From a virus, in the UHGV virus genome UHGV-0390448: a DNA stretch of 64,000 bases; one strand, 5' to 3'. A program made the translations under genes and the position numbers. Position 1 is the stretch's first letter. Each line of letters starts with the position of its first letter. Positions 42,606-60,303 of the stretch are shown one piece after another. The notes under the pieces are model-generated. The model saw only the letters and a program-made list of their open reading frames with translations. It did no database searches and was not told the origin of the DNA.

Positions 42606-45600
42606 TTAAGCCGCATCGGCGATTATTTTACGCAATTCATCTACCGAGTAACGCGTAGATACCATCCACGCCGGACGGTCAAAGTCCACATCCGCGACCG
42701 GATTCACTTCAAAATTCCAGAAACGCCCGCCAATCTTCTTAATCGCGTCTTTGGCGTTCCGTATTGTCGAGGAACCTGGTTGGTCGGCAATGAGATAAAC
42801 CGCGCCAACGTCCTCGCTGACGCTCCACCAGCGCCCGCGAACACGCGCCTTAGCGCGAATAGGCTTATCATTAACCACAATGATATAGTCATCATTCGCC
42901 GCTTCATCAGCTCTGGCTTCAGCCTCTGCCGCCTGCTCTTCTCTTTTGCTTTCAGCCTGTTCAAGCCTTTCCGCGATCTCTGATTCGGTGGCCCCGCCGT
43001 TTTTCAGCGATACAAAGTCTTGCCACGTTGCTGATTTGAGCGCATCCGGCAACTCATTCACATAGTCACCGTCTTTCAACTCACGGGCGCGGCGGGTAGC
43101 CATTTCTACCAGGCGATTAACAGAAACAGCATCAGCAAAATCGTCCTTACTAATGTGTTTTTCATCAAATGCATTGATGACAGCCCCCACCTTAATCCAC
43201 TGTGCTGCCGGTGATTCCAGGGGGTTATCAGCCTGGACAATGGCGAGTTTCGCTCCATCTACCCCATTATTCGCCAACTGTTCCAGTGCCGCCCATCCAT
43301 CTGCATCACTGAGTGATTTATATTGCTCAAACAATGCATCGCGCCAGGCCACCAGCGCAGAACGTGTTTTTTCGATCTTCGTCTTAATTTTCGCGATCTT
43401 GACCTGATTAAACATCCGTTCAATATCATCGATATTGCTAAAGGCTTTCATCCTGCCCTTGAATAAACGGTATGCCAGCACGGTCCTCCAGAATGATTCC
43501 AGACCTTCTCCGGACGGTTTGCGGAACAAGCTAAGAATATCTTCAGAAGTGACTTTATTAAGCGAACGACCTGACAGACCACGCCCAGCCATCCAGTTTT
43601 CGAACTCCTGGGCAACATCATCCATCGTTGCCTGTGCGCCCCATGCCTGCATTCCCTGGATGTAATCATACCCATACAATGCCTGGAGGAATCCCTCACC
43701 GTCCACGATATTCAGCGGGTTATCACTGGCTTGTATTTTTGCCACTTCACGCTTCAGCGCCTCATCGTTGCCATCTGGATATATCCATCGTTCAGGTGCT
43801 ATATCCGATGCTCGCCCGATTTTTTGGCCTATCACGCCATCATAGGCCGATGACAGCGCGATCTGACCATCATCTGTGCGATATGCCCAGTATTTAATAG
43901 CTGACCCACCGCCCCATGCATTACCAGGTTTACCAGCAATAACATTCATTACCCCATTGCGAATAGCATCATAGAACTGATCGCGAGTAAGTATTGTTGA
44001 TAGCTGGTGGCACTGAACACCACGCGCAGCCGTTGCGCGCGATTCAGCTACCCCCTCTTCAAAAGTTACCGCTTCAATCACAGAGTCAAACGGCAATGTA
44101 ACGATTGACCCTGGTGATCGAGCGTAACGACTTGCTCTATCCAGCCAGGCGATACGGCAGATGTACTGTGCTTTTTCACCGTCAATTTTTTCCACCCGGA
44201 CAATCGCTGTTGTTTCGCGATCATCAATGACTGCACGGTAATAACTACCTTTATGCAACAGGATATTCTTGTCAGTGCGCATATATTCCTGTGGGTTCTG
44301 AATAACATCGATACTGATATCCAGCACACCAGACTTAATAGCGCGCTCCACATCACCACGAGAGCGTTTCATTATGGTATCCGCGTCTTTTGCCCTGGTG
44401 ATCGCAAACCGCAGCACCCGCGCACGTTTTCTGTAGCTACTCAACTGCTCAAGCGCGTATTTTTGCCCATTCCTGTTCGTGCCCGCTTTTATCAGGTCGT
44501 CAAGATTGCGCTGGTAATACTCTATCTGTTCCATCGCGCTTTTCAGTTCTGTCTCCATCATGCCGATATCTTTTCCAGCGGCGTTTGCCGCTTTCAGGTA
44601 GATATCGAGAGCATTGTTGGCCTCGCGCTGTGCTTTCAGTTTCAGACGTTCTTCACGCTCTTGCGCCTGGCGAGCCATGATTGCGCGGCGTTCTTCCGGG
44701 TTTGCCGCCAGCATAATGGCGCGTTCATCAGCATCATCCGCATCACCATTGGCGATCTCTGACATGTCGGAGGTCATCACCATCTTGATCCAGTCTTTCT
44801 TACGTTTCAGCGTATCCAGACGGAAGTCGTCGAATGTGCCTTTGCCACAATAGTAGTGAACATTGACCTTCTCTTGCGGTGAACCTACGCGCGCACCGCG
44901 CCCATTTCGTTGGTCGATACTGGCTGGTGTCCAGGGTAGTGTCAGGTGGTGGATATCGGTTGTCCCGATATGCAGGTTAATACCTACTTCAGCCTTCTTG
45001 TTACAGATAATGATGCGCGTGCGCCCTTCGTTATAGTCGGCGGCAATGCCTTCCATACCCTCAAGGCCAGCATCATTTTTAGCTGAGAGATAATCCTCAT
45101 ATTGGGCAAGTTTGCTGTAGTAGGTTTCCCATGCCCCTTCTTTGTATTCACCGTTTTTATTCGGAGTAGGTTCAGTCGGCTTATTCACCTTCTTCAGCTT
45201 GATGCCGCCAGCCTGGCTAACGGTCGTCGCATTGATAATGCCTATCTCCTGCTCCGGCATTTGCAGTGCACTGGCGATAATACGGCGCAGCTTCTGGTGC
45301 TGGGCTTTTTCATCAATGAAGACAATTTGTTTACCGTTCTTCAGACCTTCACGAAGGTTTTCGATCAGCGCGGCATACTTCGGCGGGATGGGGTGTGATA
45401 CCTGCTGCAGATCAATCCCGGCGGCAGCAATGGCCTTCAGTATTTCAGCTTCCAGTTCAATGCTGGCACGTATTTCAACATGCGCCGGATGTTCACTAAA
45501 GGTGGTCTTCACTACCTTACTGGTGCGCGTACTAACCAGCCCACCAGCGCCGTCTTCTTCGGCCTCGTCTGCATCATCTGCCACTTTACCGCCAGCTACT

Positions 45601-48600
45601 TTTGGCAGGGCATCAGCAATAGCTTTTACCTTGTCTGCAAGCTCAACGGGGAACTGGAATGTAATCGCACTGGCATACAGATCCGGATCTATAGCAACCT
45701 TATCCATGTCGCGGATGATGGAGAAGATGAAATCATCCGGTTTTTCGTTTGTGATATGCCCGTTTTCATCAACCGTCAGCGCATCTTTACTACTTAACTC
45801 CTGTGCACGCTTACGAAGCTCTTCATAAGCAGCCTCCTGCTCCCCTGTCATCGGGATCTGCAAGGTATTCTCGACAATATCAGGGATTTTAACCGTCGCC
45901 CCGACGTCCGCAGCAGTCTTCAGAGTAGTCCAGCGATGGAAAATACCACGCAGGCCATCAAGGTTCTGGAAGCCAACCAGCCCCTGCTTCTCTTCCACTT
46001 CCCCGGAAATTTTCTGGACCTGAACTGTGGCTGTTTTGCCAAACACACGAACGAAATCATCAGGCGTAATGATGCCCATGCGCATCCACTCTTCCTGCGG
46101 AATGACAGTAGACAGCATGTTGAAGGCATCAATCGGACTGTTCACCAGCGGAGTTGCCGTCAGCATGACTACACCACGCCCGTTGTTGCGTTTCATCATG
46201 TACGCAGCTTTTACAGCCATGTCGCGGGCCATCTTGGATACTGCCGGGTTAGGCAAATATGCCAGTTGTCCCGCTTCACGCCCGGCATTAAAGGAGTTGC
46301 GGTAGTTATGCCCCTCGTCGGCAATCACGCTATCGAAGTTCATATCCTCAAAGTACGGGATATTCTGCTTCTTCGTTGTACCGGTATTCGCGGCCTGATC
46401 CTTAATCTTGTTCTTCTTCTGCGCATCACGGTGTTTACCAGACGCCAGGTCAAGACGCCCCATTTCCACAGCATTAAAGACAGCTTGCTGTGAGTTCTCC
46501 TCGATGGTTTTTTCTCGTAGCGGGATAGACGCGAATTGTTCTTTTGTCATGATGACCGTTCGCCAATTTGACGACGGGATCATGTTCATGCGCTGAACGA
46601 TAACGGCGCTGGCGGACTCTTTCACAACATTTCTGGTAAGAGGCTGCCCGTTACTGTCGAGGCGGGGTTCGCCATTTTCATCAAGCACCGGCGCGGTCAG
46701 AATATTGCCGTCTTCATCACGAACTTCATCCAGACCGATAAACATCATATTGGCGAAGGCATCAGCACTGTAGAAGCTCTGTGCCTCGTGATACCAGTTC
46801 TGATAAACCGCCTTCGGAACAACAATACACGTGCGTTTAGTGCGGCCTGTTTCGAAGTTATACGCCTCAAGCGCAAGCGCGGTCGTGGTTTTACCCAGCC
46901 CGGTACCAAATCCCATGATGCCGCGCCCATCTTCTGACAAGCGCCGAACTTCTTCATTCTGATAAGTCAGAGGAATGCGCTTTCCACTAATCCCTTCCAG
47001 GCCAAGCGGTGCGTTAGAGTGCGTGAACGGAATGAAGCCATTGAATGCGTCGTTATACTCGCGGGCTATCTGATCCGCCTGCGGGTGGGTGCGTAACCAG
47101 TCGTTAAAACTAACTTCCAGTTGAGCAATTTTATCCAGGTACTCGTTAGCGTTCTGCCCACGCGGTTTAACACCGTTCAGGTAGTTTTCTAACTGGTTCA
47201 GGAAGCCGTCTTTATTGTTGGCCTTCTTGAACTCATTCCCGTTTTTGCCGTTTACGGTTCGTAGCTGATAGCCGGTAAATACCCCGTCCTTACCTTCGTA
47301 ATCGTCCGGAGATACCAGAATGCCATCGACGACCTTCAGATCAGGTTCAGTGTACTTAAACTCGTCATAGCCCTGCTCTGCCAGGAACTCTTTTATCAAG
47401 CGGCGATCCAGCCAGCGGGCGTTCAGATTAACGGTGACTTTATTTAGTGGCGTGAAAATGCGTTTCTCTTCGATTTTCGCCAACTGACGCTCAAAGTTCG
47501 ATTTCTGCTCACCTGTTGACGCATCACGCCAGCCCATCAGCAATGCTGTTTTGGTTGCAATATCGCCGCTGGTGGCGCGGTCCATCGGCAGCAGGCAGCC
47601 ATACCCATCAATAGCGATATCATCAAATTTCGCCAGGTATTCAAGGGCCGCGTCGTCGTCCTCTGGCAGTTCACCAGCAAACGCCTCACGAAAGTCGCCC
47701 AGCGTTATAGGATTAAGGGCTACATCACTGAAAAGATGTGCTATCACTTGTTCCGGACGTGTAAAGTCAATACCGGCAGCACCATCCGTTACATCAAGTC
47801 GCCCTGCCAGAAGGTCAGAAGTGGAACCATCCTGTTTCACGTTGCCAGTGAACGTCATCCAGTTTTTAGCTCCAGCTTCTGCAAGCCCATTCAGCTTAAT
47901 CGCGTGCGGTGGTCCATACTTCGCAACTTCTGCTGCCGCCAGGCGGGATGCATCTGCCAGTTTGTCATCAACGTTCACCCCCAGGTTACGCAAATCAAGT
48001 GCCTTGTTGATCAACTGCCCTATCAACGCACCGCGCATAACGCGCTCCCTATCTTTTTCTCGCTGTTTGCCAGCAAAGCGAATCATTGCTGCCACTTCAT
48101 CACTGACAACCGATGGATAGTCGGACGCGATCGCCGATATCTGGTCCCATGACAAAGCCAGAATCCCGTTTGTTGACTGGAACGCGATCTGCAGATCGCC
48201 AAACGTCGAAACACCATATCGACTTACATCAAGCGCGGAGGATTTGGTTGTCGTGTCCTTAACCCATTTCAGGCCATCAAACTCATGCCAGATACCGCCT
48301 ACAAGGCGCTTATCCCCTACTTTTGCGCCCTGCCATGCCTGGGTAGTTACTCCGAGCAAATCCCAATTAATACGGCTTTCAAAGCGGCGTGATAGAGCGG
48401 TTTTCATCGACTCATTGGATACACGGCCATCCTTTTTCACCACCAGGGTATTGCGGAAGCTGGTGCGTTCCATGTCGCCATAAACAAATCGCTTCCCTTC
48501 GGTTGTAAACCATTTCCCTTTGAGGAAGGAATCCCAAAGGACGTTTGCCGATTTGAGCGTTGCATCATCCGTGTCGGGGATCATCTCCAGGAAGGTTTCC

Positions 48601-49457
48601 GGGTGTTTACGCAATACCCATACGTCCACCACGGTATCTGTACCGGATTCGCTGAACGTACCAGAAGGCATACGATGCGCGCCCAAAAATTCCGCCTTAC
48701 GGCTGACTTTATCGCGCAATTTTTTGTATTTCGTACCATCGGTCATGCCATTCGGCACCACCAATACAATTAGTCCACCAGGCTTAACCTTGTCGATCGT
48801 GCGCAGCACAAAGTAATTGCCAACGTTCTTCTCGTTTGCATATGCCGGATCAAGCCCGGCGACACCGGAACGCCCTTCACCAAACGGTACGTTACCAACA
48901 GCGTGATCATACATTGCGTCTTTCGCCGCCAGCGCCTCAAACGCCCCGATATTCACATCGTCTTCCGGGTGCAAAAGCTGGTTTATTCGACCGGAAATCG
49001 GAGACAGTTCGGCGCTGGTCATTATCATGCCCTGCCGTTTTGTCTCCTGGAAAATACCTGTGCCTGCTGACGGTTCCAGTACGTGACCGCTATCAATACC
49101 GTAGTCGCCGAAGAGATCCCATATACCTTCTGCCATAAACTGTGGCGTATAGTATTCGTATTGGCTGCCCTCACCATCTGTCAGGCCGCCTTCACCGGTA
49201 TACCCGGCAAGAATCTGGCGCTGTTCGTCAGTTAATTTCGCCCCATCGAAGCCGGGCGGAAGGGAATTAAGAAGATCTACTGCGGCGTTGTTTGCTGCCC
49301 GGCGTGTTTTCTGAATACTGACGCCATCGACTTTCTTAACGCCAAAGGTCACTACAGCTCGCGGTTTATGCAACCGACTAACAATTTCAATCAGCGCCCC
49401 AATGCTGGTGGCCTGGCTAATTGAATCAATTATTTTGTCCAAAGGAAGCCCCCTCAA
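42606..49457 (-). CDS. darB: DarB-like giant virion antirestriction protein (N6-adenine methyltransferase plus SF2 helicase)
   Basis: 2283 aa; MTase motifs VLEPSAGTGIF and GNVPFG; helicase motifs GFGTGLGKTTTA, ADEGHNYRNS, MLTATPLVNS; size and domain order match P1 DarB (about 2255 aa). Confidence 0.75.
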   Translation of the reverse strand: MRGLPLDKIIDSISQATSIGALIEIVSRLHKPRAVVTFGVKKVDGVSIQKTRRAANNAAVDLLNSLPPGFDGAKLTDEQRQILAGYTGEGGLTDGEGSQYEYYTPQFMAEGIWDLFGDYGIDSGHVLEPSAGTGIFQETKRQGMIMTSAELSPISGRINQLLHPEDDVNIGAFEALAAKDAMYDHAVGNVPFGEGRSGVAGLDPAYANEKNVGNYFVLRTIDKVKPGGLIVLVVPNGMTDGTKYKKLRDKVSRKAEFLGAHRMPSGTFSESGTDTVVDVWVLRKHPETFLEMIPDTDDATLKSANVLWDSFLKGKWFTTEGKRFVYGDMERTSFRNTLVVKKDGRVSNESMKTALSRRFESRINWDLLGVTTQAWQGAKVGDKRLVGGIWHEFDGLKWVKDTTTKSSALDVSRYGVSTFGDLQIAFQSTNGILALSWDQISAIASDYPSVVSDEVAAMIRFAGKQREKDRERVMRGALIGQLINKALDLRNLGVNVDDKLADASRLAAAEVAKYGPPHAIKLNGLAEAGAKNWMTFTGNVKQDGSTSDLLAGRLDVTDGAAGIDFTRPEQVIAHLFSDVALNPITLGDFREAFAGELPEDDDAALEYLAKFDDIAIDGYGCLLPMDRATSGDIATKTALLMGWRDASTGEQKSNFERQLAKIEEKRIFTPLNKVTVNLNARWLDRRLIKEFLAEQGYDEFKYTEPDLKVVDGILVSPDDYEGKDGVFTGYQLRTVNGKNGNEFKKANNKDGFLNQLENYLNGVKPRGQNANEYLDKIAQLEVSFNDWLRTHPQADQIAREYNDAFNGFIPFTHSNAPLGLEGISGKRIPLTYQNEEVRRLSEDGRGIMGFGTGLGKTTTALALEAYNFETGRTKRTCIVVPKAVYQNWYHEAQSFYSADAFANMMFIGLDEVRDEDGNILTAPVLDENGEPRLDSNGQPLTRNVVKESASAVIVQRMNMIPSSNWRTVIMTKEQFASIPLREKTIEENSQQAVFNAVEMGRLDLASGKHRDAQKKNKIKDQAANTGTTKKQNIPYFEDMNFDSVIADEGHNYRNSFNAGREAGQLAYLPNPAVSKMARDMAVKAAYMMKRNNGRGVVMLTATPLVNSPIDAFNMLSTVIPQEEWMRMGIITPDDFVRVFGKTATVQVQKISGEVEEKQGLVGFQNLDGLRGIFHRWTTLKTAADVGATVKIPDIVENTLQIPMTGEQEAAYEELRKRAQELSSKDALTVDENGHITNEKPDDFIFSIIRDMDKVAIDPDLYASAITFQFPVELADKVKAIADALPKVAGGKVADDADEAEEDGAGGLVSTRTSKVVKTTFSEHPAHVEIRASIELEAEILKAIAAAGIDLQQVSHPIPPKYAALIENLREGLKNGKQIVFIDEKAQHQKLRRIIASALQMPEQEIGIINATTVSQAGGIKLKKVNKPTEPTPNKNGEYKEGAWETYYSKLAQYEDYLSAKNDAGLEGMEGIAADYNEGRTRIIICNKKAEVGINLHIGTTDIHHLTLPWTPASIDQRNGRGARVGSPQEKVNVHYYCGKGTFDDFRLDTLKRKKDWIKMVMTSDMSEIANGDADDADERAIMLAANPEERRAIMARQAQEREERLKLKAQREANNALDIYLKAANAAGKDIGMMETELKSAMEQIEYYQRNLDDLIKAGTNRNGQKYALEQLSSYRKRARVLRFAITRAKDADTIMKRSRGDVERAIKSGVLDISIDVIQNPQEYMRTDKNILLHKGSYYRAVIDDRETTAIVRVEKIDGEKAQYICRIAWLDRASRYARSPGSIVTLPFDSVIEAVTFEEGVAESRATAARGVQCHQLSTILTRDQFYDAIRNGVMNVIAGKPGNAWGGGSAIKYWAYRTDDGQIALSSAYDGVIGQKIGRASDIAPERWIYPDGNDEALKREVAKIQASDNPLNIVDGEGFLQALYGYDYIQGMQAWGAQATMDDVAQEFENWMAGRGLSGRSLNKVTSEDILSLFRKPSGEGLESFWRTVLAYRLFKGRMKAFSNIDDIERMFNQVKIAKIKTKIEKTRSALVAWRDALFEQYKSLSDADGWAALEQLANNGVDGAKLAIVQADNPLESPAAQWIKVGAVINAFDEKHISKDDFADAVSVNRLVEMATRRARELKDGDYVNELPDALKSATWQDFVSLKNGGATESEIAERLEQAESKREEQAAEAEARADEAANDDYIIVVNDKPIRAKARVRGRWWSVSEDVGAVYLIADQPGSSTIRNAKDAIKKIGGRFWNFEVNPVADVDFDRPAWMVSTRYSVDELRKIIADAA

Positions 49458-49594
49458 AACCGTTAAATCCGCCTTAAGCGGTTCGGTTTGAGAGGGTATG
49501 GAGAATGTTATTTTCAGGGATGAACGACACTACCGTCAAAATCACATACTCACCATAGTTTGCCTACTTATTAACCCATGAGCGGGAGAAATAT

Positions 49595-50080
49595 ATGGCA
49601 AACATTGAACCTCGCTGGCTTATTGAGGCCCGTAAAAATATTGGAGTCACCGAAATAAAAGGAGCGAAACACAATCCTGAGATCGTTCAGTTCTGGCGGG
49701 ATATTAAGCGCAGCGGAATTAAAGACGACGAAACGCCGTGGTGCGCTGCATTTGTTGGTGCAATGCTGGAACGTGTAGGTATCCGCTCAACAAGATTTGA
49801 GTCGGCAAAATCCTATCTGGATTGGGGCGAGAAATTAGATACACCGGCATACGGATGTATCGTTGTATTTACTCGCGCAGGCGGTGGGCATGTAGGCTTT
49901 GTTGTCGGACGCCGCGCCAATGGCGATCTGCTTGTCTTGGGTGGGAACCAGGGGGATGCTGTTAATATTCGCGCATTCCCAACATCAAGAGTGTCTGGCT
50001 ATCGCTGGCCTGCTGGCGAACCACGCAATACAGCTCTGTTACCAGTCGGAGACGCAGCAACCTCAACTAATGAGGCATAA
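49595..50080 (+). CDS. CHAP/NlpC-P60-like cysteine peptidase (TIGR02594-like), putative cell-wall hydrolase
   Basis: Conserved Cys (PWCAAFV) and His (GGGHVGFVVG) spacing; lone plus-strand gene. Confidence 0.5.
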   Translation: MANIEPRWLIEARKNIGVTEIKGAKHNPEIVQFWRDIKRSGIKDDETPWCAAFVGAMLERVGIRSTRFESAKSYLDWGEKLDTPAYGCIVVFTRAGGGHVGFVVGRRANGDLLVLGGNQGDAVNIRAFPTSRVSGYRWPAGEPRNTALLPVGDAATSTNEA

Positions 50081-50103
50081 AAAAGCCCCGGCCTGGCCGG
50101 GGC
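50081..50103 (-). terminator. GC-rich hairpin with U-run on the minus strand
   Basis: gccccggcc-t-ggccggggc preceded by aaaa on the plus strand. Confidence 0.45.
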
Positions 50104-50111
50104 ATCACACT

Positions 50112-51016
50112 TCAAGTTACGATCCAATCATTACCGACTGCATCCGCCGTCGATAAATCGACTTCCCGGATCTGGTATCCATTAACACAAAACCATCCAG
50201 TAGTAGAGCTATTATCAGGCCAGACCCATACACCAACACTCCATGCTTTACGGCGGCACACTTCAGCCTGTCCTTCCCTGATTTTTTTTACCGCCTGCAT
50301 GATGTCCATCACTCGCCTCCCCAACCGATCACCTGGAATTGTCCCATCCTTGGGTGATACCAGCGTTTTCCTCGGTGTTCAGCCTCCGACATCATCAGGT
50401 TAAAGGCATTCATGAAGGGAGATAAGGCCACAATAGTACGACGCGACAATACCCCCTCTGGCGTCAAAAACTCATGCGTATCAGTGGGTATCCGGTAAGC
50501 GTTGACCAGGTTGCGGCATTTGGCTTCAGTCAGGCCGCATTTTGCCGCCAACTGGCGGTAGCCAATGTAGCCTTCCGGAATATTGCCTTTCTTGATCTGC
50601 TCGACGGTTTCAGCAACCTGGCTAACCTTTGACTCAACAACATGAAGCCGCTTTTGCTGCTGAACTGCATTTGCAGCCATTGCAGCGATCATCTCTATTT
50701 CGGTCAACGGCTGGCGTACTTGTTCTTCCAGTTCGCGCCAGCGGTCCACCAGCCGGGCGGTGAATTCGGGAGAGAGCTGCGCGACGACGATAATGCTATC
50801 GCGCTTGCCTTGCTCGCCTTCGAAGACGTAAGCCTCAACACTACGTCGTAGTCCTAAGTTATTGATTTTTTCGAAAACCTCAATTTGAGGACGAACAATA
50901 ACGCCACCTTTGGCTAATGTCTCAATAGTGCGTTTCACATTGTCATGACGTTTTCCCACCAGCTCCGCAATCTCAATGCTGGTCATTGATGGTTTTTCGA
51001 GAATGCAGATATCCAT
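50112..51016 (-). pseudogene. Rha-family regulatory gene, copy 2, split into two overlapping ORFs by a frameshift
   Basis: ORFs 50309-51016 (235 aa) and 50112-50324 (70 aa) together align to the intact 308-aa copy at 8650-9576; frame switch falls just after the shared WYHPRMG-FQ motif, near 50325-50345. Confidence 0.5.
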
Positions 51017-51240
51017 CAGTGAGCCTCCGCAATGCAGGGATTAGTAATATTGCGATACCAGGGGTTAGTGTTTGGTTGTGGGGAAGTAGAGAAACGACCA
51101 GTGAGCACGCCATACTGATCAGGGATCAGAGAACGGGCTTCTTTTTCAGTTGCGGCAATTGCGAAGTGATCGCAGTGTTTTTGCAGGGAGTGAAAACGCC
51201 AGATGAATTCTGGACGTGAGCAAGGATTGGCATTAACCAT
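51016..51240 (-). CDS. Ash-like small protein, copy 2
   Basis: 74 aa; paralog of 9576-9791. Confidence 0.45.
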   Translation of the reverse strand: MVNANPCSRPEFIWRFHSLQKHCDHFAIAATEKEARSLIPDQYGVLTGRFSTSPQPNTNPWYRNITNPCIAEAH

Positions 51241-51656: not shown

Positions 51657-52616
51657 TCATCCCCGAAAGCCCTCCGGAATTGACCAGTCTTCCCGGTCAA
51701 ATTCAGACCGATAGCCACGCTGTTTCATCAGGTCAAATGCTTCATTGATGGTTGCACATCCCTGGGAAGCAGAATAATCCATAGAGAAATCCAGGGCGCT
51801 GGATCGTTTGGGCTTATTCACTGTGGTAGCACTACGTAACCATGCAAATTTTTTTGCCAGTTTTTCAGCGGTACGATACAGAGCCTGCCGTTTTGCGAAC
51901 CCCTCGTCTGAACGACGCTTTGCAGCTCTCGCTTTTGCCGCCGCCAAACAGTGGTTGGTATGTTCTTCCCTGATTACTGTTTTTTTATCCAGCAAGCCAT
52001 TATCCGCTTGAGAACTATCTGCTGGTGAAGCCTTTGGCTGAACCGCGCATGATCTTTCTCTTCTTTTGGCTATAGAGTGACTCTTATTTTCTATTGGCTG
52101 TTCATTTTGAACATGGGGGGACTTGTTCAATTTGAACAGGGGGTGCCCAGTTTCAAAAAAATAACGAACCTTTGAAATCAACTGCTTAACCAGTTTTGTG
52201 GCGTTGGCAAATTTGATGCCCTGCTTACTCCCTATCTCCATTGCTACATGAATGAAGTGGAGAAATTGTGTTGTAAACCGGTACACGTTACACACCTGAG
52301 CATTGTTATTCGCTACCTGATGCTGCTTAACAAGCATTCCGCACTTCGTCGCTTCAGTAAATGCCCGGCGCACAGTAGAAATACTGCGTCCTGTAATCTC
52401 GGACATATCAGCATATGAGCGACGGATCATGTATTCATCGGTAGCTCCTGCCAGGTTGGCGAACTCGGCAATAATGGCGCTATGTGAAGGGGAAAGAAAA
52501 CCGCTATGACGAGCAAAAAAACTCAACTGATGACCTTTGATTTTTTTGTGGTATTCAGTGTTGTTTTTATACTCAGAAGTGTTGAAAGTAACTGAAACTG
52601 AATTTAAAATACTCAC
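51657..52616 (-). CDS. Putative replication initiator (RepL-like, winged-helix); tentative
   Basis: 319 aa; HTH-like segment EITGRSISTVRRAFTEATKCGMLVK; operator half-site in its leader, as for the C1-controlled kilA-repL replicon of P1. Confidence 0.35.
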   Translation of the reverse strand: MSILNSVSVTFNTSEYKNNTEYHKKIKGHQLSFFARHSGFLSPSHSAIIAEFANLAGATDEYMIRRSYADMSEITGRSISTVRRAFTEATKCGMLVKQHQVANNNAQVCNVYRFTTQFLHFIHVAMEIGSKQGIKFANATKLVKQLISKVRYFFETGHPLFKLNKSPHVQNEQPIENKSHSIAKRRERSCAVQPKASPADSSQADNGLLDKKTVIREEHTNHCLAAAKARAAKRRSDEGFAKRQALYRTAEKLAKKFAWLRSATTVNKPKRSSALDFSMDYSASQGCATINEAFDLMKQRGYRSEFDREDWSIPEGFRG

Positions 52617-52796: not shown

Positions 52797-52815
52797 AATT
52801 AAGCTAGCTTTTAGC

Positions 52816-53814
52816 TCACATCCTCTTAGACACAAAGATCAGCGGAGTCACCGTCTTGTTCTCTTTCACCGGTATTTCTTGTTGTTTATTGGCTGATATT
52901 GGCAGACCATAAGTGGCATTAGCCCCCAGGGATTCAAGCATCGCTGCGACAATGCGTGCATCATCCTCTGACTGCATACGGCAGAGCGCCCGGCGCTGTT
53001 CTGCGCTGATAAAAACAGGCATTTCCTGGATAGCATCACGCAAAATACGGCGGCATTTCTTCGCGTTCTCCCCCTGGCTTTCCATCATCGCGGCCTGGTC
53101 GCGTAGTTTGTCGCGAAGCTGCATATTTTCCACTTCAAGATGTATCAGTTCCGACTCCAGAACTTCACGTTGTGCTGATTCGAGTATGGCTTGCTGACTC
53201 TTCATTGCTGAAAAGTGGTGAACCAGATCCGTAGCAGCATTATCGGTAAAACCTTGTTCGATAAGTGCCGCATGAATCGCCGCGTCGCGTTCTTCTGCTG
53301 ATTCAAGCATCAGGCTTTTCTTGTCGAGGCTGATATAGTTAGGCACAGTTACGTAATCAAAACCGTGAAAAGACTTTACCAGGGATACAGAGTAATCTGG
53401 ACCAGATGTAGCCCATGACCAACCACCTGCGCCAGAATTAATCATACCCTGAACAATACGTCCGGTGTCCGTATCCAGTATTTCCTGTGTATGGGTAACA
53501 ATGCCGTTGTCGTCAATTGAAATATCGATAGTCCTGTTTGACGGCACGTTCTCCAATACAACAGGCTTCCCATCTACCATCACAACAGAGACTTCCGGCA
53601 AGTCCAGGCTTTTCGTTTTGTTATAGTGCATCGCCCGGCGACCATGACCGTAATAACCATACATCTCACCCAGTGCGATACGCTCTTTTGTTTCTGGCGA
53701 GTTGAATGTGTCTCGTACCGACTGGATAACGTAATTGCGATTGTTCTGAGGTGTGTGTTTGCGGATTTTCTCTACCAGGGAGAAGCGATCCGTAACGGTA
53801 TTCAGTGATTGCAT
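52816..53814 (-). CDS. Putative head maturation protease or scaffold (Pro-like); tentative
   Basis: 332 aa, directly downstream of the portal-like gene; coiled-coil C-terminal half. Confidence 0.35.
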   Translation of the reverse strand: MQSLNTVTDRFSLVEKIRKHTPQNNRNYVIQSVRDTFNSPETKERIALGEMYGYYGHGRRAMHYNKTKSLDLPEVSVVMVDGKPVVLENVPSNRTIDISIDDNGIVTHTQEILDTDTGRIVQGMINSGAGGWSWATSGPDYSVSLVKSFHGFDYVTVPNYISLDKKSLMLESAEERDAAIHAALIEQGFTDNAATDLVHHFSAMKSQQAILESAQREVLESELIHLEVENMQLRDKLRDQAAMMESQGENAKKCRRILRDAIQEMPVFISAEQRRALCRMQSEDDARIVAAMLESLGANATYGLPISANKQQEIPVKENKTVTPLIFVSKRM

Positions 53815-53827
53815 TATTTCCCTCCGG

Positions 53828-55513
53828 TTAATTATTGCTCATCACAAATTTTGCAAAGTTGATTAATTGTTCTTGCGTCCAGTTTTCCGGATCGTCACCG
53901 GACGACAACGGCGCGGATTCGTACATACCATGCTCGTTGTTTTGCTCTGATTCATTCGCCTTAAACTCTTTGATCATTACGTTGAGAGTGTCATCGTCGA
54001 TACGAAGCTGTTCGGTGAACAGATAACGCATAAACGCGTCGCTACCCGCCAGTTTCGGGTTGTTCTGGATCTGGTCCATTATTTGCGAGATGACAGCTAC
54101 GAAGTTGGCGCGCGCATCCAGCTCTCGGTTTTCCTCTTCCTGGATAGCTGTGTTCATTGAGTTGAATTGCACGTCATAAGGACGGTTTTTTTCGGTGTAA
54201 ACCTTCCCGTATTTATAAGCGAGGTGAATGTCATGAAGCCGATAAATAGTCCGCTGGGCGGCCTGTCTGATCCAGTTCGCGCGTAATGCGGCCTGGATAG
54301 CTGTTTGCTGCCAACCGCCTTCTCCAAGTCCACCACTCATCTGATCAGCCCAGCCAAGCATTGTTGCGTCAATACCGAGGCTTGCCGCGAGCTGTCGGAG
54401 ATGAAACATAACGTCTTCGATACCACTGATATCTGCGGGTATAGATTGCGTATCAATGGTGATCCCGTTCTTCCCATCCCCCATGACAGGTATCAGATGG
54501 TTAAGTACAGATGGGAGAGCATTAGAATTAATCGACCGTTGCGCTACGAGGTCGCTATGACGCTTCAGTGCCTGGCTGACCCCGCGCGTATAATTCGCCG
54601 CGTTTACCGGATCTATCGTGTTCGTTGTGAGTGCAATCAGGCGATCAATTTTTGCAGCGTTGTTTCGCGTTGCTTTCAGCGCAGCAAGCGCGGCACATAA
54701 ATTCAGGTAGGGTTCATAACTGTATTCAAGAAACGACGTACCGTAGTTCTGCGTCTCCATTAACGGCTTGTCCTGCTGTTCACTAAGCAAGGAATAGCCG
54801 TTAGTGCCGTAAGTTACTGGCATTACTTTATGCTGAGGCGTCCAGTACGGGTTTTTCATGGAAACCAGATTCCACGGTTCGGTTATAACTCTGCGCAAAG
54901 TATGCGTATCCAGAATGTAATCGCCGCTGAATCCGACAAGTTGGCTACCGCGATAAAACTCCTGAACGAAATGAGGGAGCGTGTAATAGCTCGACTCAAT
55001 TCCAGTTATCCCCTTCCCTTGCTCTGCATATGGACGGATATACGACACACCGAAAATAGCCATGATCATGGCCCACGATGGAAGGCCATCATTAATCATT
55101 GAGCTTAAATCAGCGGTCAATTCCTCACATCGACTTACAGCCTCCTTATCCGCCCCATTTTTCGGAGCGAGAATAAATGCGAGGCCTGTTTTTTTTGATG
55201 GAGCCAGAGAATGCGCAATGTGAATGTTTAATGCTGTGGAGATAGTCGGACTTTTCGCCATCGTCTCCAGTATGTTGTATTTTTGCAGGCGGTCACTCGG
55301 TAATTCTGCCGATATAGATACTGTATCCGCCGCGCTTGTCATGCCATCGCTATTGCTCCCCAGGATGCCAGGACGCAAGGCGGACAGGCCAGAACGAGCA
55401 ACGACGCTATGCCCGCTCGCAAATACGACCGGATCGGCAGGCGTAACATCACCACCGCTGAAGGCTTTCTTCAATGCCGACAGAAAGCCCTTGTTTTTGT
55501 CTTTCGTTGCCAT
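53828..55513 (-). CDS. Putative portal protein (Prt-like); tentative
   Basis: 561 aa, acidic C-terminus, followed by a protease/scaffold-like gene. Confidence 0.4.
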   Translation of the reverse strand: MATKDKNKGFLSALKKAFSGGDVTPADPVVFASGHSVVARSGLSALRPGILGSNSDGMTSAADTVSISAELPSDRLQKYNILETMAKSPTISTALNIHIAHSLAPSKKTGLAFILAPKNGADKEAVSRCEELTADLSSMINDGLPSWAMIMAIFGVSYIRPYAEQGKGITGIESSYYTLPHFVQEFYRGSQLVGFSGDYILDTHTLRRVITEPWNLVSMKNPYWTPQHKVMPVTYGTNGYSLLSEQQDKPLMETQNYGTSFLEYSYEPYLNLCAALAALKATRNNAAKIDRLIALTTNTIDPVNAANYTRGVSQALKRHSDLVAQRSINSNALPSVLNHLIPVMGDGKNGITIDTQSIPADISGIEDVMFHLRQLAASLGIDATMLGWADQMSGGLGEGGWQQTAIQAALRANWIRQAAQRTIYRLHDIHLAYKYGKVYTEKNRPYDVQFNSMNTAIQEEENRELDARANFVAVISQIMDQIQNNPKLAGSDAFMRYLFTEQLRIDDDTLNVMIKEFKANESEQNNEHGMYESAPLSSGDDPENWTQEQLINFAKFVMSNN

Positions 55514-55745
55514 GATTCACCGCAAAAGGTTTCCGATTTCGTGGCAGCTTATCCAGTGTGTGATTTCATCAGTAATTTTTCGTTGTTTTCACCATATGCT
55601 GATGTTTTTTCATATGCGGAAATGCTTTTCCAAAAACGCAACAACCAAACAAAGAAGTCATGTTTATAAACATTTTTGTTGTGTTTTATATCTTTCGTGT
55701 TACTATTCTTGCCGCCCATGATGGATAAATTGCATAAGGAAACTT

Positions 55746-55928
55746 GTGAAGTATTCAGAGTTCAAACGCTGGTTAATCCAGCAAGGGGCAGAGTTCAGGA
55801 AAGCGCCTGGTGGCGGCAGTCATCAGAAAGTGAACCTGAACGGAAAGCGGTCGGTTTTCCCGGACCACGGTTCAAAGGAAATGCCTGAACCGCTACGCAA
55901 GAAAATAATGAAGGACCTGGGGCTTTAA
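55746..55928 (+). CDS. hicA: HicA toxin
   Basis: MKYSEFKRWLIQQGAEF...GGGSHQKV...FPDHGSKEMPEPLRKKIMKDLGL; close to E. coli HicA. Confidence 0.8.
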   Translation: MKYSEFKRWLIQQGAEFRKAPGGGSHQKVNLNGKRSVFPDHGSKEMPEPLRKKIMKDLGL

Positions 55929-55958
55929 GCCCCAGCCTTTTTCACTAGGAGCTTCTCT

Positions 55959-56390
55959 ATGTTTAACTATCCGGTAAAACTGGAGCGCGACGACAAAACC
56001 GGCGCGTATGTCGTATCATGCCGCGACCTACCATTGTTTAATTCCGTGGGTGACTCAGTTGAAGAAGCGTTGCTTGAGGCTGGTTATGGATTGGTCGCAG
56101 CGGTTGCGATTGAGATTGAAGAACGCCGACCTGTTCCCACTGGTAGCGAGCCAAAAGAAGGTGAGTACGTTGTCTCTTTGCCAGTGCTACCAGCAATGAA
56201 GGCTGCACTCCACAACGCGATGATAGAAACCGGCACACGCAAAGCAGAGTTGGCGCGCAAACTCGGCAAAAATGGAACACAGATTGATCGGCTTCTCGAC
56301 GTCGAACATTCATCGAAAGTTGAAACTGTCGAGCTGGCACTGCATCAACTGAATAAAAATATCGCCGTATCTGTCACACCAATGCGGTGA
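55959..56390 (+). CDS. hicB: HicB antitoxin with C-terminal HTH
   Basis: 143 aa; RNase-H-like N-terminal part and C-terminal TRKAELARKLGKNGTQIDRL HTH. Confidence 0.8.
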   Translation: MFNYPVKLERDDKTGAYVVSCRDLPLFNSVGDSVEEALLEAGYGLVAAVAIEIEERRPVPTGSEPKEGEYVVSLPVLPAMKAALHNAMIETGTRKAELARKLGKNGTQIDRLLDVEHSSKVETVELALHQLNKNIAVSVTPMR

Positions 56391-56502
56391 CTGCTCCCCG
56401 CCCTGGCTGGGCGAGGATTTACGGGGTATTTGTTAAAAACGCTCTATTCAAAGAAGAAATACCGAATCCCCCGGAGGTTATCCGGGGTGTCCGGTCGCCA
56501 GG

Positions 56503-57888
56503 TCAGGTTTCCAGCCCAAAATCGCTTTGTTCTGTTTTGGCTTCGAACATCGTGAAGTTAAGCCCTTTCCCCTCTCCATGTTCCAGTTCAATCTCATTAG
56601 AAACAGCGGTCAAAATACTACGTAGATCGACATCTCCACCGCCGAACATATCGCCCAACGCCTGCTGTTTATGAATCAGTTCGTCGTTGATTTTTTGTGC
56701 CATTTTTTTGAATGCAGCCCCCATGCGCTTCGCGCTTCGATTATTTGCCACGATGAATAGCGCCAACGCCTCAGCTTCCGGCGTGCTATCACCGAAGAGT
56801 CCGCGCTGGGCTATCACCTCTTCCACCGCCTGACCGTTATCTTTGGCTTCACGAACAAGGTTAATCGCATCCTGGAGTGCTGCTATAGCCTGTTTATCCA
56901 GGCCGTTCACCTGCTCTATACCATCAACCAGACCAGTTACAGCATCATGATGTGCATCGCCAGAAATCGACTGCATTTGCGCAAAGTCACTGGCTGCTGT
57001 ATTAAGCGCGGTCAGGATATTGCGCATTTCCGGATCCGGTTCTTCCGCCACAAGCCGAACAAGTCGCTCATCCTTATAGGCTTTGGCAAAAATCGCATTC
57101 TGAATGCGATCGATAAGCTGTTTCGTTGGACGTCCATCGGCTGTAAGCAAACCTGCCGTCGCGGTATCGCCTATTTCGTGCAAAAACGCACGAATAAACG
57201 CATCATTGGACCGCGCCAGTAGATTGCCATCATCTGAAGGATTAAATAGCGCCATGACGCTCTCAGTGAGAAATTGCGCATCCGCATACGCTTTCTCACT
57301 TGCAGCCATCTCTTGCAGATCGCTGATGTTTGAGTCGCGTGCAAATTGAGCACGATCAACGTCAGTGAGGCGCTCGCGAACCAGTACAGGCATCACCATT
57401 GCCCTGACGTCTTCGGGATTAAGGCCAAACTCTTTAGCGTGATCGATAAGATATTGTCGGTAATCTTCAGCCTGCCCTTGTTCATAAGCACGCCAGATTC
57501 CCATGCTTCGACCATTACCAGACTCAACGACATTATCCGGACCAACAATCGGGGAACCATGACTACTCATACCCGAATCAGTGAGTTGTGCCGGGCGTAA
57601 ATTGGCGGCGATACGGTTAACCTGGAGCTTACTTGACAGTCGGGTGCGATCGCGAGGCTGGAGTTCCTCCGGAAATGACGGATTTATACTTCCGTCCAGG
57701 TTGTTAGAAATGATGAGCTTTTTGGCATCAATAACCTTGAACGCTGTTTTAACTTCGTCGCCTTTGCTGGTGACGACATAGCTGCTACGCCCCAACTTCG
57801 TCTCTTGCTTTTCAAGAGATGACACCACAGCGATAACCCCCTCAATGTTCGCTGCGGCTAGAAGTGCTGATGTTACGTTTTGAGTCAC
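56503..57888 (-). CDS. Hypothetical virion-associated protein (possibly Dar/Ddr-like by context)
   Basis: 461 aa; last gene of the minus-strand block that starts at the tail fibre. Confidence 0.5.
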   Translation of the reverse strand: MTQNVTSALLAAANIEGVIAVVSSLEKQETKLGRSSYVVTSKGDEVKTAFKVIDAKKLIISNNLDGSINPSFPEELQPRDRTRLSSKLQVNRIAANLRPAQLTDSGMSSHGSPIVGPDNVVESGNGRSMGIWRAYEQGQAEDYRQYLIDHAKEFGLNPEDVRAMVMPVLVRERLTDVDRAQFARDSNISDLQEMAASEKAYADAQFLTESVMALFNPSDDGNLLARSNDAFIRAFLHEIGDTATAGLLTADGRPTKQLIDRIQNAIFAKAYKDERLVRLVAEEPDPEMRNILTALNTAASDFAQMQSISGDAHHDAVTGLVDGIEQVNGLDKQAIAALQDAINLVREAKDNGQAVEEVIAQRGLFGDSTPEAEALALFIVANNRSAKRMGAAFKKMAQKINDELIHKQQALGDMFGGGDVDLRSILTAVSNEIELEHGEGKGLNFTMFEAKTEQSDFGLET

Positions 57889-57979
57889 AATTAACCACCT
57901 TTCTGTAAAAAAGGCAGTGTAAAAAGTGTGTTATTTCGCTGACTATTTTAAGAAGAAAGGGGCATTCTGCCCCTCTCTT

Positions 57980-58351
57980 TTACGCTGCATACCCGTTAGC
58001 TGAAACCCAGTTTACGGTCTGTTCTTTGGCCTGGTCGAGTGTCAAAAATTCACCAATATATTGAGATATGCCTCTCAAAGCATCGATGAACTCCATTTGT
58101 GATGATTTAGTAAATGCACCACTAAGGAAGTCAACAACAATTTTAGGCGTTTCTTGTGCCGCCGGTTGCACTTCCTCTTCTTGCTGTTGCGCTGGATTAT
58201 TCGATGAACCAAGCCCCAGCTTCATCATCACTTCAACTATCCGCACGCCAATAGTGACACGTTGTACCGCAGTCGCGCTTTTTTGCGCTGACATCAGCTC
58301 AGACAGTTCTTTGCCTAAGCTAAGGCGCTCCGTTACTGATATTTTCACCAC
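57980..58351 (-). CDS. Hypothetical protein
   Basis: 123 aa; overlaps upstream gene by 7 nt. Confidence 0.45.
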   Translation of the reverse strand: MVKISVTERLSLGKELSELMSAQKSATAVQRVTIGVRIVEVMMKLGLGSSNNPAQQQEEEVQPAAQETPKIVVDFLSGAFTKSSQMEFIDALRGISQYIGEFLTLDQAKEQTVNWVSANGYAA

Positions 58352-60303
58352 ACGCCCCCTTGTTGTATCTCTGCCAAAATGTTGATCAGGTGATCGGCTG
58401 CCGCACCAACAAGTGACTCGTTCTCATCATATCGACCTGCGTTGATAAGAACATTAGCTGCCTCCTGAATGCGATCAAACTCCGCTCTAATCACCGTCAA
58501 ATCACGGGACGTAAACTGCAACGGCACGGATTTCAGATATTCCAGCGCACTGTCCGCCTCCTGATCAGCCTCACTAACGACTGGCCCATCTGAACCTGTA
58601 TCAGATTCTTGGGGGGATTCAGGTTCAGACTCAGGTACTGGTACTGGTTCTGGTACTGCTTCCGGTGCCTGATCTAATGTCTGTTCAGCTTCGACTACTT
58701 CTGATTGATTCTGAAGCGCGTCATAGATATCCATTATAAAAAGGTTCTCCCCATCTCCAAGTGGATAAGCGACGTTAGGAAATGCTTTGCGGAAGAGGAT
58801 TTTTATCTGCGCCTTAAAGGTTTTCAAGTCGCTTCCAAACAGATCAACATAGCCATCAATATGGTTCGACATACTGGACGCAACCAATTCGCCTGCAATC
58901 TCTTTCAATTCATCGTCACCAGGGAGATATAGCAACTCGTACTGACTGACTTCTTCGTCTGTCAGTTTGCGGTCATACGTAATGATTCCGTGACGAGCAT
59001 ATTCGTAATACGGATCAGCCTGATCAGGACGGTCAAGTACAGCTTTATTTCCTTCAGGAACCGCACCAACACCCGCCGGGCGAGATTGGAGCGCATAGCG
59101 ATATTTACCAACCTCCAGGGGATCAGGATGTGATTCTGGTTGTGGCTCCTGTTCAGGCTGCGGCTGATCAGTTGGCTCAGGCTGGCCCGGCAACACATCC
59201 ACTTTGTATTGATCAGCATTATGTTCACGATAGGCTTTAAGTAATTTGGTTGCAGCGTCCGCTGAACTCCCACCTTTAACAGCACTGACATCAATACTGA
59301 AATTGCCTTCTGGTGCCTCAATCGTGACAAAGCTATCACTGCCTGACGTGACATACTTAACTACAGCACCATTATCCAGCGTTGTTTGGCCTTCTGTAGC
59401 AAGATTATGTTTTATGTGTCGCAGTTGATCATTGAAGGCACGCTCTTTAGTTCCTTGGCTCTTAGCTGACAATAAATTATCGCGTTTAGCCTGCAATTCC
59501 GCGTTAAGGGCTTTTTGTGCGTCTAATTTATTCTGCATATCATTGAGTGTTGAGCGTTTCTCTGCCAGCCTCCGCTGTGCGTCTTCAACCTGCTCAATCA
59601 GCACAGAACGTTCTTCTGCCAGCTTGTCGGCTTCATTGAGATACCCCTCAATATCAGCCTTCATTTTGTCCTGGCGCTCCTTTGCTTTTTTGAATTTTGC
59701 ACTATTACGCTCAATGAGGTTAGAAAGCGCCTGGCATACCTGGCTCAGAGATACATCACGCCCACCGATTGGCGCAACAACATGCGTAACGTTTCTTTTG
59801 TTAAGAAGAAACTGAAACGCAACCAGCTCGTCATCCCCTTTAATTCTTGTGCCGTCTGCGGTTGGAGAATGGAAAATTATGCTTGTCGTTTGCCCATCGG
59901 TTAGAGGTATTTGTGCTGTTACAACAGGGATATTTGCAACCCGGCGCACGCGCCCAATGATTGCCCCACCGATACTATTACGTCCGTCTTCATATTCACC
60001 TGCCTCATCCGTACCCGCAGCAATGTCAGTGCCATTCAGGCCGCGATTAAGCGCCCGGACGAATGCTCGCATTGTTTGCGCTAACCGCAATTTTGTTGTG
60101 GTTATAGCTTCGAACATTGCCTCATTGGTAGTTACCAAAATTTCGTTGCCCATATAGGCCAGCTCGATATCCTCCAGAGTCGCAGGCTCGATAAGTAAAT
60201 CATCCTCGGTGATATCTTCCGCCACCCAACGATTAGGCGTATATCCAGTGAGCGTATCTGCAAAAGTGGACTGGATATTTATTCGAATAGGTTTCTTTAT
60301 CAT
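58345..60303 (-). CDS. Large hypothetical virion protein, DarA-like by size and context; unverified
   Basis: 652 aa (P1 DarA is about 640 aa); lies downstream of the holin-like pair; coiled-coil and Pro/Glu-rich linkers. Confidence 0.5.
   Translation of the reverse strand: MIKKPIRINIQSTFADTLTGYTPNRWVAEDITEDDLLIEPATLEDIELAYMGNEILVTTNEAMFEAITTTKLRLAQTMRAFVRALNRGLNGTDIAAGTDEAGEYEDGRNSIGGAIIGRVRRVANIPVVTAQIPLTDGQTTSIIFHSPTADGTRIKGDDELVAFQFLLNKRNVTHVVAPIGGRDVSLSQVCQALSNLIERNSAKFKKAKERQDKMKADIEGYLNEADKLAEERSVLIEQVEDAQRRLAEKRSTLNDMQNKLDAQKALNAELQAKRDNLLSAKSQGTKERAFNDQLRHIKHNLATEGQTTLDNGAVVKYVTSGSDSFVTIEAPEGNFSIDVSAVKGGSSADAATKLLKAYREHNADQYKVDVLPGQPEPTDQPQPEQEPQPESHPDPLEVGKYRYALQSRPAGVGAVPEGNKAVLDRPDQADPYYEYARHGIITYDRKLTDEEVSQYELLYLPGDDELKEIAGELVASSMSNHIDGYVDLFGSDLKTFKAQIKILFRKAFPNVAYPLGDGENLFIMDIYDALQNQSEVVEAEQTLDQAPEAVPEPVPVPESEPESPQESDTGSDGPVVSEADQEADSALEYLKSVPLQFTSRDLTVIRAEFDRIQEAANVLINAGRYDENESLVGAAADHLINILAEIQQGGVW

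Follow-up and report, generated by a model that had tools for sequence, protein, structure and literature searches.

Escherichia phage D6, a relative of phage P1, was reportedly described by Gilcrease and Casjens in 2018. The D6-like architecture comprises antirestriction modules, an ImmI-related region (c4, icd and an antirepressor gene), a second c4/icd region, a peptidoglycan hydrolase gene located beside ImmI, and LydA and LydB, with Lxc being absent (PMC6799933, section 11, citing Gilcrease & Casjens 2018). In P1, the six proteins of the Dar antirestriction system enter the head one after another, Hdf and DarA being followed by DdrA, DdrB, Ulx and, at the end, DarB; 55 DarA-Hdf pairs line the inner surface of the capsid and touch the DNA, and the Dar proteins exit together with the DNA, shielding it against type I restriction, the protection against EcoA depending on DarA and that against EcoB and EcoK on DarB, Ulx and DdrB (PMC12810830, PMC9024508). 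Here, a stretch of 64,000 nucleotides (nt) from the virus genome UHGV-0390448 (hereafter, the window) was analyzed with the focus on its 17.7-kb region at positions 42606-60303, which the original prediction had described as a mosaic Dar-type antirestriction region with a non-P1 gene order and a HicAB insertion. With a probability of roughly nine in ten, this is the segment in which a D6-like phage-plasmid, a P1 relative occurring as a ~90-kb plasmid in Escherichia coli, carries its genes for head morphogenesis, Dar antirestriction and lysis together with immI/repL. The arrangement is already known, as it matches a described phage lineage and many database plasmids, and the region is ordinary for the D6 lineage; its sole distinction from the D6 type is the HicAB cassette at a variable spot, which is already present on public plasmids.

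Synteny with phage D6 and gene order in P1

The gene products were compared by blastp with the proteins of the P1 (NC_005856) and D6 (MF356679) records, and the map of open reading frames (ORFs) was read over 38-64 kb of the window. This part displayed an almost continuous run of minus-strand genes, broken by two plus-strand stretches, the order between 42.1 and 61.7 kb being ulx-darB, the CHAP hydrolase gene, an orf17-like gene with the antirepressor, icd and C4 RNA genes, repL, pro, prt, hicAB (on the opposite strand) and ddrB-ddrA-darA-hdf-lydB-lydA. In the D6 annotation, D6_14 to D6_30 correspond to these genes, with neither order nor orientation changed, the hicAB spot aside. As determined by megablast, D6 matched the 17.7-kb region at 91% nucleotide identity with 85% of the query covered, and E. 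coli plasmids matched it at 98.4-98.8% identity over 99-100% of its length. Local blastn aligned the entire 64-kb window collinearly with D6, starting at D6 64.5 kb, crossing the origin and ending at 31.5 kb, and both searches place it in the D6 lineage, as judged by collinearity with ~80-95% nucleotide identity over the core genes. The 45 places matched in complete E. coli genomes were without exception on plasmids; among the 25 matches listed, 24 plasmids were 89-96 kb in size and one was 76 kb. Three PLSDB plasmids (NZ_CP104667.1, which is the closest, NZ_CP069647.1 and NZ_LR890273.1) shared 98.4-98.8% identity over all 17.7 kb, and these three together with seven more plasmids of complete genomes were at least 99% identical to the window across the prt-hicAB-ddrB junctions, showing point differences only; hicA and hicB are annotated on these plasmids by RefSeq. 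No record 100% identical to the region was found among the plasmid matches.

The order in P1 is (minus strand) lxc-ulx-darB, (plus) prt-pro, (minus) lydE-lydD-lyz, (plus) ssb-isaA-IS1-isaB and (minus) hxr-ddrB-ddrA-darA-hdf-lydB-lydA-lydC, followed by cin, with c4-icd-ant-kilA-repL lying ~30 kb away. According to the original prediction, darB of P1 is directly followed by prt and pro, and the P1 record bears this out, the latter two genes being divergent from the minus-strand darB. The Rep-like gene, the immI-like module and the CHAP peptidase that it had placed between darB and the portal-like and protease-like genes of the window were likewise confirmed by P1 and D6 homologues, Pfam and Rfam. 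As to the mosaic that was deduced from these observations, one part of the claim stands, namely that the gene order differs from that of P1; the other does not, as the order is that of D6 except for the cargo between prt and ddrB, and no noteworthy mosaic remains. D6, a described P1-like phage, is thus identical in synteny everywhere save the hicAB spot, and since D6 and at least 119 PLSDB plasmids carry the same order and flanks, the arrangement is not a new one. A Dar mosaic born in this very element by recombination among P1-like phages would explain the departure from the P1 order, and it might also be sought behind the lower amino acid (aa) identity to D6 of DarA, DdrA and Hdf (65-80%) compared with their neighbours (90-99%), which suggests some allelic exchange within the D6 lineage. 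Such an origin is nevertheless highly improbable and effectively refuted by the D6 synteny, because the order is identical in D6 and more than 100 plasmids, and plasmids 98-99% identical over all 17.7 kb leave nothing element-specific in the arrangement.

Dar genes and candidate late promoters

The presence of a Dar-type, capsid-internal antirestriction system in this D6-like segment is supported by homologues of all six P1 components: in the alignment with P1 proteins, the Dar proteins all matched their counterparts with 35-64% aa identity. The large methyltransferase-helicase gene expected from the prediction, darB (42606-49442, minus strand), was found to encode a protein with 97.7% identity to D6 DarB and 43% identity to P1 DarB over 1,924 aa (residues 1-1924). 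Its maximal ORF (42606-49457) yields 2283 aa from a TTG codon; the TTG start supported by homology, with GAGGGGG ahead of it, is at 49442 and gives 2278 aa, as in D6. The Pfam matches of DarB are SNF2-rel_dom, ResIII and Helicase_C, with N6_Mtase being marginal (20.0 bits against the cut-off of 20.4), and the motifs in common with P1 comprise methyltransferase motifs I (EPSAGTG) and IV (NVPF) and helicase motifs I (GTGLGKTT) and II (DEGH). Judging by these motifs, darB is the gene of an N6-adenine methyltransferase fused to an SNF2/DEAD-type helicase. Directly downstream of it lies ulx (42135-42569, minus; 144 aa, 99% aa identity to D6 orf14 and 46% to P1 Ulx), so that the pairing of a giant darB of this kind with an adjacent ulx, typical of P1-type Dar, is found here as well. 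In P1, Ulx helps DarB to enter the virion (PMC9024508 Table 1).

The second group of Dar genes is preceded by a holin/antiholin pair, as predicted, which proved to be homologues of lydA and lydB. All genes of this group are located on the minus strand. The holin gene lydA (61353-61679; 108 aa) has a PHROG holin match at 1.3e-38 and 41% identity to P1 LydA and 94% to D6, and the gene of the holin antagonist, lydB (60907-61353; 148 aa), has a Pfam LydB match at 1.5e-24 and 34% identity to P1 LydB and 94% to D6. They are followed by hdf (60300-60941; 213 aa, homologue-supported start at ~60917), a paralogue carrying a DarA_N domain (4e-18; PHROG Hdf-like 2.7e-72; 40% identity to P1, 80% to D6), and by darA (58345-60303), the 652-aa product of which contains DarA_N (6.8e-40) and DarA_C (4.2e-19) and is 40% identical to P1 DarA and 78% to D6 orf27. 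Further downstream are ddrA (57980-58351; 123 aa, PHROG DdrA-like anti-restriction 6e-44, 35% to P1 DdrA and 65% to D6 orf26) and a short form of ddrB (56503-57888; 461 aa, Pfam ddrB-ParB 2.5e-40, 64% to P1 DdrB residues 2-442 and 90% to D6). Consequently, hdf, darA, ddrA and ddrB are co-directional and downstream of lydA-lydB, in the P1 order and with blastp E values from 1e-23 to 0, as is characteristic of a P1-type Dar operon. All genes named in the prediction were present where it had put them, in genuine coding sequence with strong homologues. Apart from the darB start, the boundaries first proposed need only minor correction: lydA, lydB and most of hdf lie past the right coordinate of the region and ulx past the left one.

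The DdrB of the window corresponds to the ParB-like N-terminal 45% of P1 DdrB and ends at the equivalent of P1 residue ~442. The C-terminal zincin metallopeptidase motif HEXXH, situated at residue 872 in P1 DdrB and at residue 890 in the long D6-like form, is absent from DdrB of both the window and D6, and in this feature the protein departs from the P1 type. DdrB without the peptidase half is also found in most D6-like plasmids, being a difference from P1 and not from the D6 lineage. The D6-like plasmid NZ_CP117014.1 keeps, as P1 does, a full-length DdrB (1013 aa, 44% identity to P1 DdrB) together with an hxr homologue (compared stretch 5023-8347); hence, the short DdrB (461 aa) that the window shares with D6 probably represents a derived truncation.

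The P1 late-promoter consensus AAGTGACTW-N4-TANNNT and the C1 operator core TGCTCTAAT had no meaningful sites in the window, and a lineage-specific motif was therefore derived. It originated from a 10-mer common to the regions upstream of prt and lydA, which was widened to AAT[C/A]ACA[A/C/T][A/T][C/G]-N4-[T/C/G]ANNNT. The window contains seven matches of this pattern, against 0.21 expected from Markov simulations, and all of them are situated 25-60 nt upstream of start codons, the genes behind them being tail gene 7, mat, darB, the CHAP gene, prt, ddrB and lydA. Two of the matches (2874-2893 and 7109-7128) precede late genes outside the Dar region. The darB match (49493-49512, minus) is conserved at the same place in D6 and is divergent from that of the CHAP gene (49540-49559, plus; D6 19216-19235); the remaining three, all on the minus strand, precede prt (55546-55565), ddrB (57916-57935; D6 27727-27746) and lydA (61712-61731, the position of P1 LPdar). 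In D6, 11 matches were obtained, including those upstream of the R/S, sit/pmgB, gene 23, upfC, gene 7 and mat homologues and those at the positions of P1 LPsit, LPmat, LPdar and LPpro. A homologue of lpa was found at 35061-35453 of the window. Provided that the motif is correct, late expression would apply to the Dar genes as a whole, to the portal and protease genes and to the lysin gene. The motif is missing from hicAB. A generic promoter/terminator scan revealed no enrichment over shuffles. A candidate D6-type C1 operator, TTGATNTTTCTAAT, occurring twice, at two sigma-70-like promoters upstream of c4, was not adopted and is mentioned as a lead only: it resembles the P1 C1 operator, and the statistics of its wider pattern are weak (4 matches against 0.6 expected, with the simulation maximum being 4).

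Considering these homologies, the Dar mechanism of P1 is the best-supported reading of the segment; the relationship itself is observed, and from it we infer the function. By homology with P1, after induction Lpa would activate the late promoters ahead of lydA-lydB-hdf-darA-ddrA, ddrB, prt-pro, darB-ulx and the CHAP gene. While the head is being assembled, Hdf and DarA would attach to the inner surface of the capsid and nucleate the stepwise addition of DdrA, DdrB, Ulx and, lastly, DarB; the Dar proteins, ejected along with the DNA, would shield it in cis against type I restriction. The timing of lysis would fall to LydA and LydB, with the CHAP hydrolase as the likely endolysin.

Several points weigh against transferring the P1 scheme as a whole to the window. 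Virion packaging, antirestriction activity, the Lpa dependence of the motif and the toxicity of HicA are all inferred. Of the first 30 residues of DarB, only ~5 are identical to P1 in the alignment, and this is the part which in P1 DarB constitutes the capsid-targeting signal (PMC9024508); at the other end, the last ~340 residues hardly align with P1 DarB. The C-terminal metallopeptidase has been proposed to autoprocess P1 DdrB (PMC5512222), and the short DdrB, having no such domain, may be handled differently. As both the P1 late-promoter box and the C1 operator are absent, the regulation is deduced from architecture and not from sequence identity, and the late-promoter pattern, having been refined and counted on the same sequences, is a strong lead and no demonstration. 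Finally, the window covers 64 kb of a ~90-kb element and is devoid of cin, so that inducibility is at best presumed for this copy. One may go further and regard the element as a decayed, non-inducible plasmid remnant with Dar genes as relics without function, given that cin is down to a 24-codon remnant, that several segments differ from D6 and that the element is visible only in part. This seems quite doubtful to us: the ~20 genes of the region are all intact full-length ORFs with conserved catalytic motifs, the lineage is 99% conserved across human, dog, chicken, monkey and wastewater sources, and the loss of cin merely fixes the orientation of the tail fibre genes.

The hicAB cassette at the prt-ddrB site

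In the D6-like segment, ddrB is followed by the head genes prt, encoding the portal protein (53828-55513, minus; 561 aa, 48% identity to P1 Prt and 94% to D6 orf22; PHROG portal 7.6e-226), and pro, encoding a homologue of the head-processing (prohead) protease (52816-53814, minus; 332 aa, 41% to P1 Pro and 92% to D6 orf21). Between ddrB and prt, a cargo segment of 967 bp (55570-56536; blastn breakpoints 55569/55570 and 56536/56537) replaces D6 25245-26346, i.e., orf23/24. It carries, on the strand opposite to the Dar block and the portal gene and between the two, just as predicted, hicA (55746-55928, plus; 60 aa, GTG start) for a predicted mRNA-interferase toxin and hicB (55959-56390, plus; 143 aa) for a predicted antitoxin with a C-terminal helix-turn-helix (HTH) domain, neither of which has a match in P1 or D6. 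Both matched Pfam above gathering, HicA as HicA_toxin (1.3e-9) and HicB as HicB-like_2 (6.2e-13). Full-length alignments were obtained for HicA with its E. coli counterpart (6hpb_A, E 1e-12), the His of GSH/SNH being aligned, and for HicB with 6hpb_B and 6u0i_A (E 2e-15), the C-terminal HTH included. The features of a type II HicAB module, i.e., adjacent genes with the toxin first, a HicA_toxin domain with its catalytic His, and an N-terminal HicB fold with a DNA-binding domain, are thus all present. The HicA RNase would be neutralized by HicB, which would autoregulate the module via its HTH domain.

On its left side the cassette meets the flank 4 bp ahead of the candidate late promoter of prt, and the right junction falls within the last ~12 codons of ddrB, the tails of which are variant-specific. 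Target-site duplications and terminal repeats were looked for in the junction alignment, and none were found. Transposition as the insertion route was therefore rejected, and, as the right junction is inside the end of ddrB, a cassette swap between conserved flanks is the more suitable explanation. The core of the cassette (~55673-56391) is 87% identical in nucleotide sequence to a 47-kb Enterobacter plasmid with a PY54-like context (N15/PY54-type phage-plasmids), 80% identical to Klebsiella megaplasmids and 69% to Yersinia phage PY54.

A survey of the site, for which the two flanks only were used as the query against PLSDB, found the flanks in 119 plasmids. In about four fifths of 60 sampled rows prt and ddrB were essentially contiguous, with only 64 bp separating the ddrB stop from the prt start in CP057047.1, and the insertion claimed for HicAB is accordingly real relative to most relatives, in which the site is empty. 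The D6 cargo (orf23/24) was present in 14 plasmids and HicAB in ~6 PLSDB plasmids. The exact prt-hicAB-ddrB junctions were detected in 10 of 5,426 complete E. coli genomes, at 99% identity or above and always on ~90-kb plasmids, the hosts being humans, dogs, chicken, a monkey and wastewater; a hicAB variant adjacent to TnpB was found in five further complete E. coli genomes. Other cargo at the prt-ddrB spot includes IS200/IS605 tnpA+tnpB in CP057742.1 and, in NZ_CP117014.1, two small plus-strand genes together with the hxr homologue and the 1013-aa DdrB already mentioned. In NZ_CP056699.1, a D6-like plasmid of E. marmotae (compared stretch 6092-9480), the spot is occupied by TnpB, hicAB, an HTH regulator and a DUF3944 protein recognized by PADLOC as JukA (3e-71), and ddrB is lost, which implies that DdrB is dispensable for plasmid maintenance and that defence-type genes do land at this spot.

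HicAB is an intact, moron-like insertion at a permissive operon boundary, common to other phage-plasmid families, and in the plasmid state it most likely acts as an extra addiction or stress module outside the Dar machinery. That HicAB could instead be chiefly an anti-phage module, acting in abortive infection or superinfection, at a junction serving as a dedicated defence hotspot of D6-like phage-plasmids, would agree with the JukA-like protein and the HTH regulator beside hicAB in NZ_CP056699.1, with the DUF4145-like gene which D6 has at the spot, and with the related hicAB cassettes of N15/PY54-type phage-plasmids. We regard it as unlikely, however: no PADLOC model recognized HicA or HicB with a useful score, most of the relatives are without cargo at the site, the landing of IS200/IS605 elements at the same spot fits a merely permissive intergenic site, and the additional carriage of phd-doc and of a Gp49/HigB-like toxin by the element fits plasmid addiction. 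In the PADLOC search, D6 orf23/24, Ulx, DdrB and the CHAP protein likewise had no usable match. On the strength of the cargo seen beside the Dar counter-defence genes (HicAB, the JukA-like gene with its HTH regulator, and the DUF4145-like gene), we only tentatively put forward a broader idea, which we hold to be rather improbable: the boundary between the 3' end of ddrB and the candidate prt late promoter would be a recurrent cargo hotspot preferring toxin-antitoxin or anti-phage genes, where HicAB would protect the lysogen from other phages beyond simply stabilizing the plasmid and which would have been born from the loss of the peptidase half of DdrB. At most, it is this boundary as a hotspot of toxin-antitoxin and defence genes that would be new, and the sampling suggests it and does not establish it. 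We see the main value of the analysis in correct annotation, i.e., in that the non-P1 order is the D6 norm and that the hicAB cassette is pinned to a defined variable site.

Other features of the element and comparison with known systems

Upstream of and divergent from darB lies the gene of a CHAP/TIGR02594 peptidoglycan hydrolase (49595-50080, plus; 161 aa, Pfam CHAP 1.1e-7), which has no match in P1 and is 97.5% identical to D6 orf16, annotated as a putative peptidoglycan hydrolase. Its PHROG families are tail lysozyme and endolysin; the catalytic Cys50 and His99 are present, and the protein possesses neither a transmembrane or signal-arrest-release (TM/SAR) N-terminus nor a membrane anchor. 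Since a homologue of P1 Lyz is absent from the window and from D6, the CHAP protein is the likely endolysin, presumably released by LydA.

The following genes are all on the minus strand. A gene similar to D6 orf17 (50112-50309, maximal ORF to 50324; 70 aa, 92% identity, PHROG 7385) has no P1 counterpart. The next one (50309-51016; 235 aa) encodes a Rha/Roi-type antirepressor (Pfam Phage_pRha; PHROG anti-repressor Ant 2.8e-48; 90% to D6 orf18) that displayed no similarity to P1 Ant1 in blastp and tblastn and is not homologous to P1 Ant1/2. It is followed by icd, the cell-division inhibitor gene of immI (51016-51240; 74 aa, 61% to P1 Icd and 99% to D6 orf19), by the gene of the C4 antisense RNA (51288-51373; Rfam RF01695, 70 bits against the gathering threshold of 45) and by the a1/b1 target sites of this RNA (51442-51494; RF03163, 53.9 bits against 46.7). 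The layout of P1 immI, with a C4 RNA, its a1/b1 targets upstream and then icd and an antirepressor gene, is thereby reproduced. The lytic replication initiator gene repL (51657-52616) encodes 319 aa with 95% identity to D6 orf20 and 30% to P1 RepL (E 1e-28). A second immI-like module, the counterpart of D6 orf82-83, was observed at 8650-10056 (minus) and consists of a C4 RNA (9846-9933, 77 bits), an isrK-like RNA (9978-10056, 62.7 bits), an icd-like ORF (~9594-9770, 63% to P1 Icd) and a gene for a 308-aa Rha/KilA-type antirepressor (8650-9576).

Elsewhere in the window, the cin invertase gene, located beside lydA in D6 and P1, is represented by a 24-codon remnant (61837-61908) with 71% identity to residues 11-34 of P1 Cin. 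The remnant is followed by the tail-fibre assembly gene (62142-62564, minus) and the tail-fibre gene (62596-63990, minus), which, with cin in this state, are probably fixed in one orientation; in the closest plasmid, NZ_CP104667.1, no recombinase gene is listed between lydA and the tail-fibre assembly gene. A tRNA cluster at 36971-38051 (minus) comprises five genes (Met, Ser-tga, Thr, Tyr and Arg), and that of D6 (7145-7850) contains Ser, Thr and Asn; the latter genes are on the minus strand according to ARAGORN and on the plus strand in the MF356679 record, probably owing to an annotation strand error. Toxin-antitoxin modules of the element, hicAB included, number at least three: a Gp49/DUF891 (HigB/RelE-like) toxin ORF (5867-6214, minus) was found in a segment without a D6 match, 25063-25691 matches the D6 phd-doc region, and 3278-3666 matches D6 orf72, annotated as a HigA-family antitoxin. 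Two Ead/Ea22-like ORFs (13073-13519 and 18562-19251, both plus) lie in segments without a D6 counterpart, which represent further small variable cargo spots.

The analysis also provides a candidate consensus of D6-type late promoters unlike that of P1 and distinguishes a long DdrB, with the peptidase half, from a short one. Possible uses are the engineering of D6-like and P1-like phage-plasmids for the delivery of protein or DNA and the study of cargo integration in phage-plasmids.

Compared with known systems, the hicAB module shares with HicAB of E. coli K-12 (PDB 6hpb) the toxin-first order, the conserved His of HicA and a HicB with an HTH domain, but is located here inside a myovirus late-gene cluster. 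The candidate late promoters have the same layout (9-bp box, 4 nt and a -10-like hexamer) and positions as the Lpa-dependent LPdar, LPpro, LPlyz, LPmat and LPsit of P1, the box being AATMACA... in the D6 lineage versus AAGTGACTT in P1, with the same spacing. Phage D6 (MF356679 / NC_050154) and D6-like plasmid prophages, such as pYU39_89, possess the identical order from ulx through lydA, at 65-99% aa identity; both D6 and the window contain a second immI-like module and lack Lxc, KilA and Lyz. The window differs from D6 in having hicAB (967 bp, plus) in place of orf23/orf24 (1102 bp, minus), in the last ~12 codons of ddrB, in the missing cin, in the tRNA set and in several small cargo segments. 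The differences from P1 are as follows. In the window prt-pro is inverted and co-directional with the dar operon; repL and the immI module are inserted between pro and darB, with repL being upstream of c4 and not downstream of ant/kilA; the CHAP hydrolase gene holds the position divergent from darB; this stretch is devoid of lyz/lydD/lydE, ssb, isaA/B, IS1 and hxr; DdrB, lacking HEXXH, has 461 aa versus 995 aa in P1; and the Ant protein is of the Rha/Roi type. By tblastn, homologues of P1 Lyz, LydD, LydE, Ssb, Hxr, KilA, Ant1 and Lxc were found neither in the window nor in D6. Common to the window and P1 are all six Dar components in the same order within the operon, the position of the dar operon after lydA-lydB, with an element of the late-promoter type (a candidate in the window) ahead of these genes, the domains DarA_N, DarA_C and ddrB-ParB, and the methyltransferase and helicase motifs of DarB.

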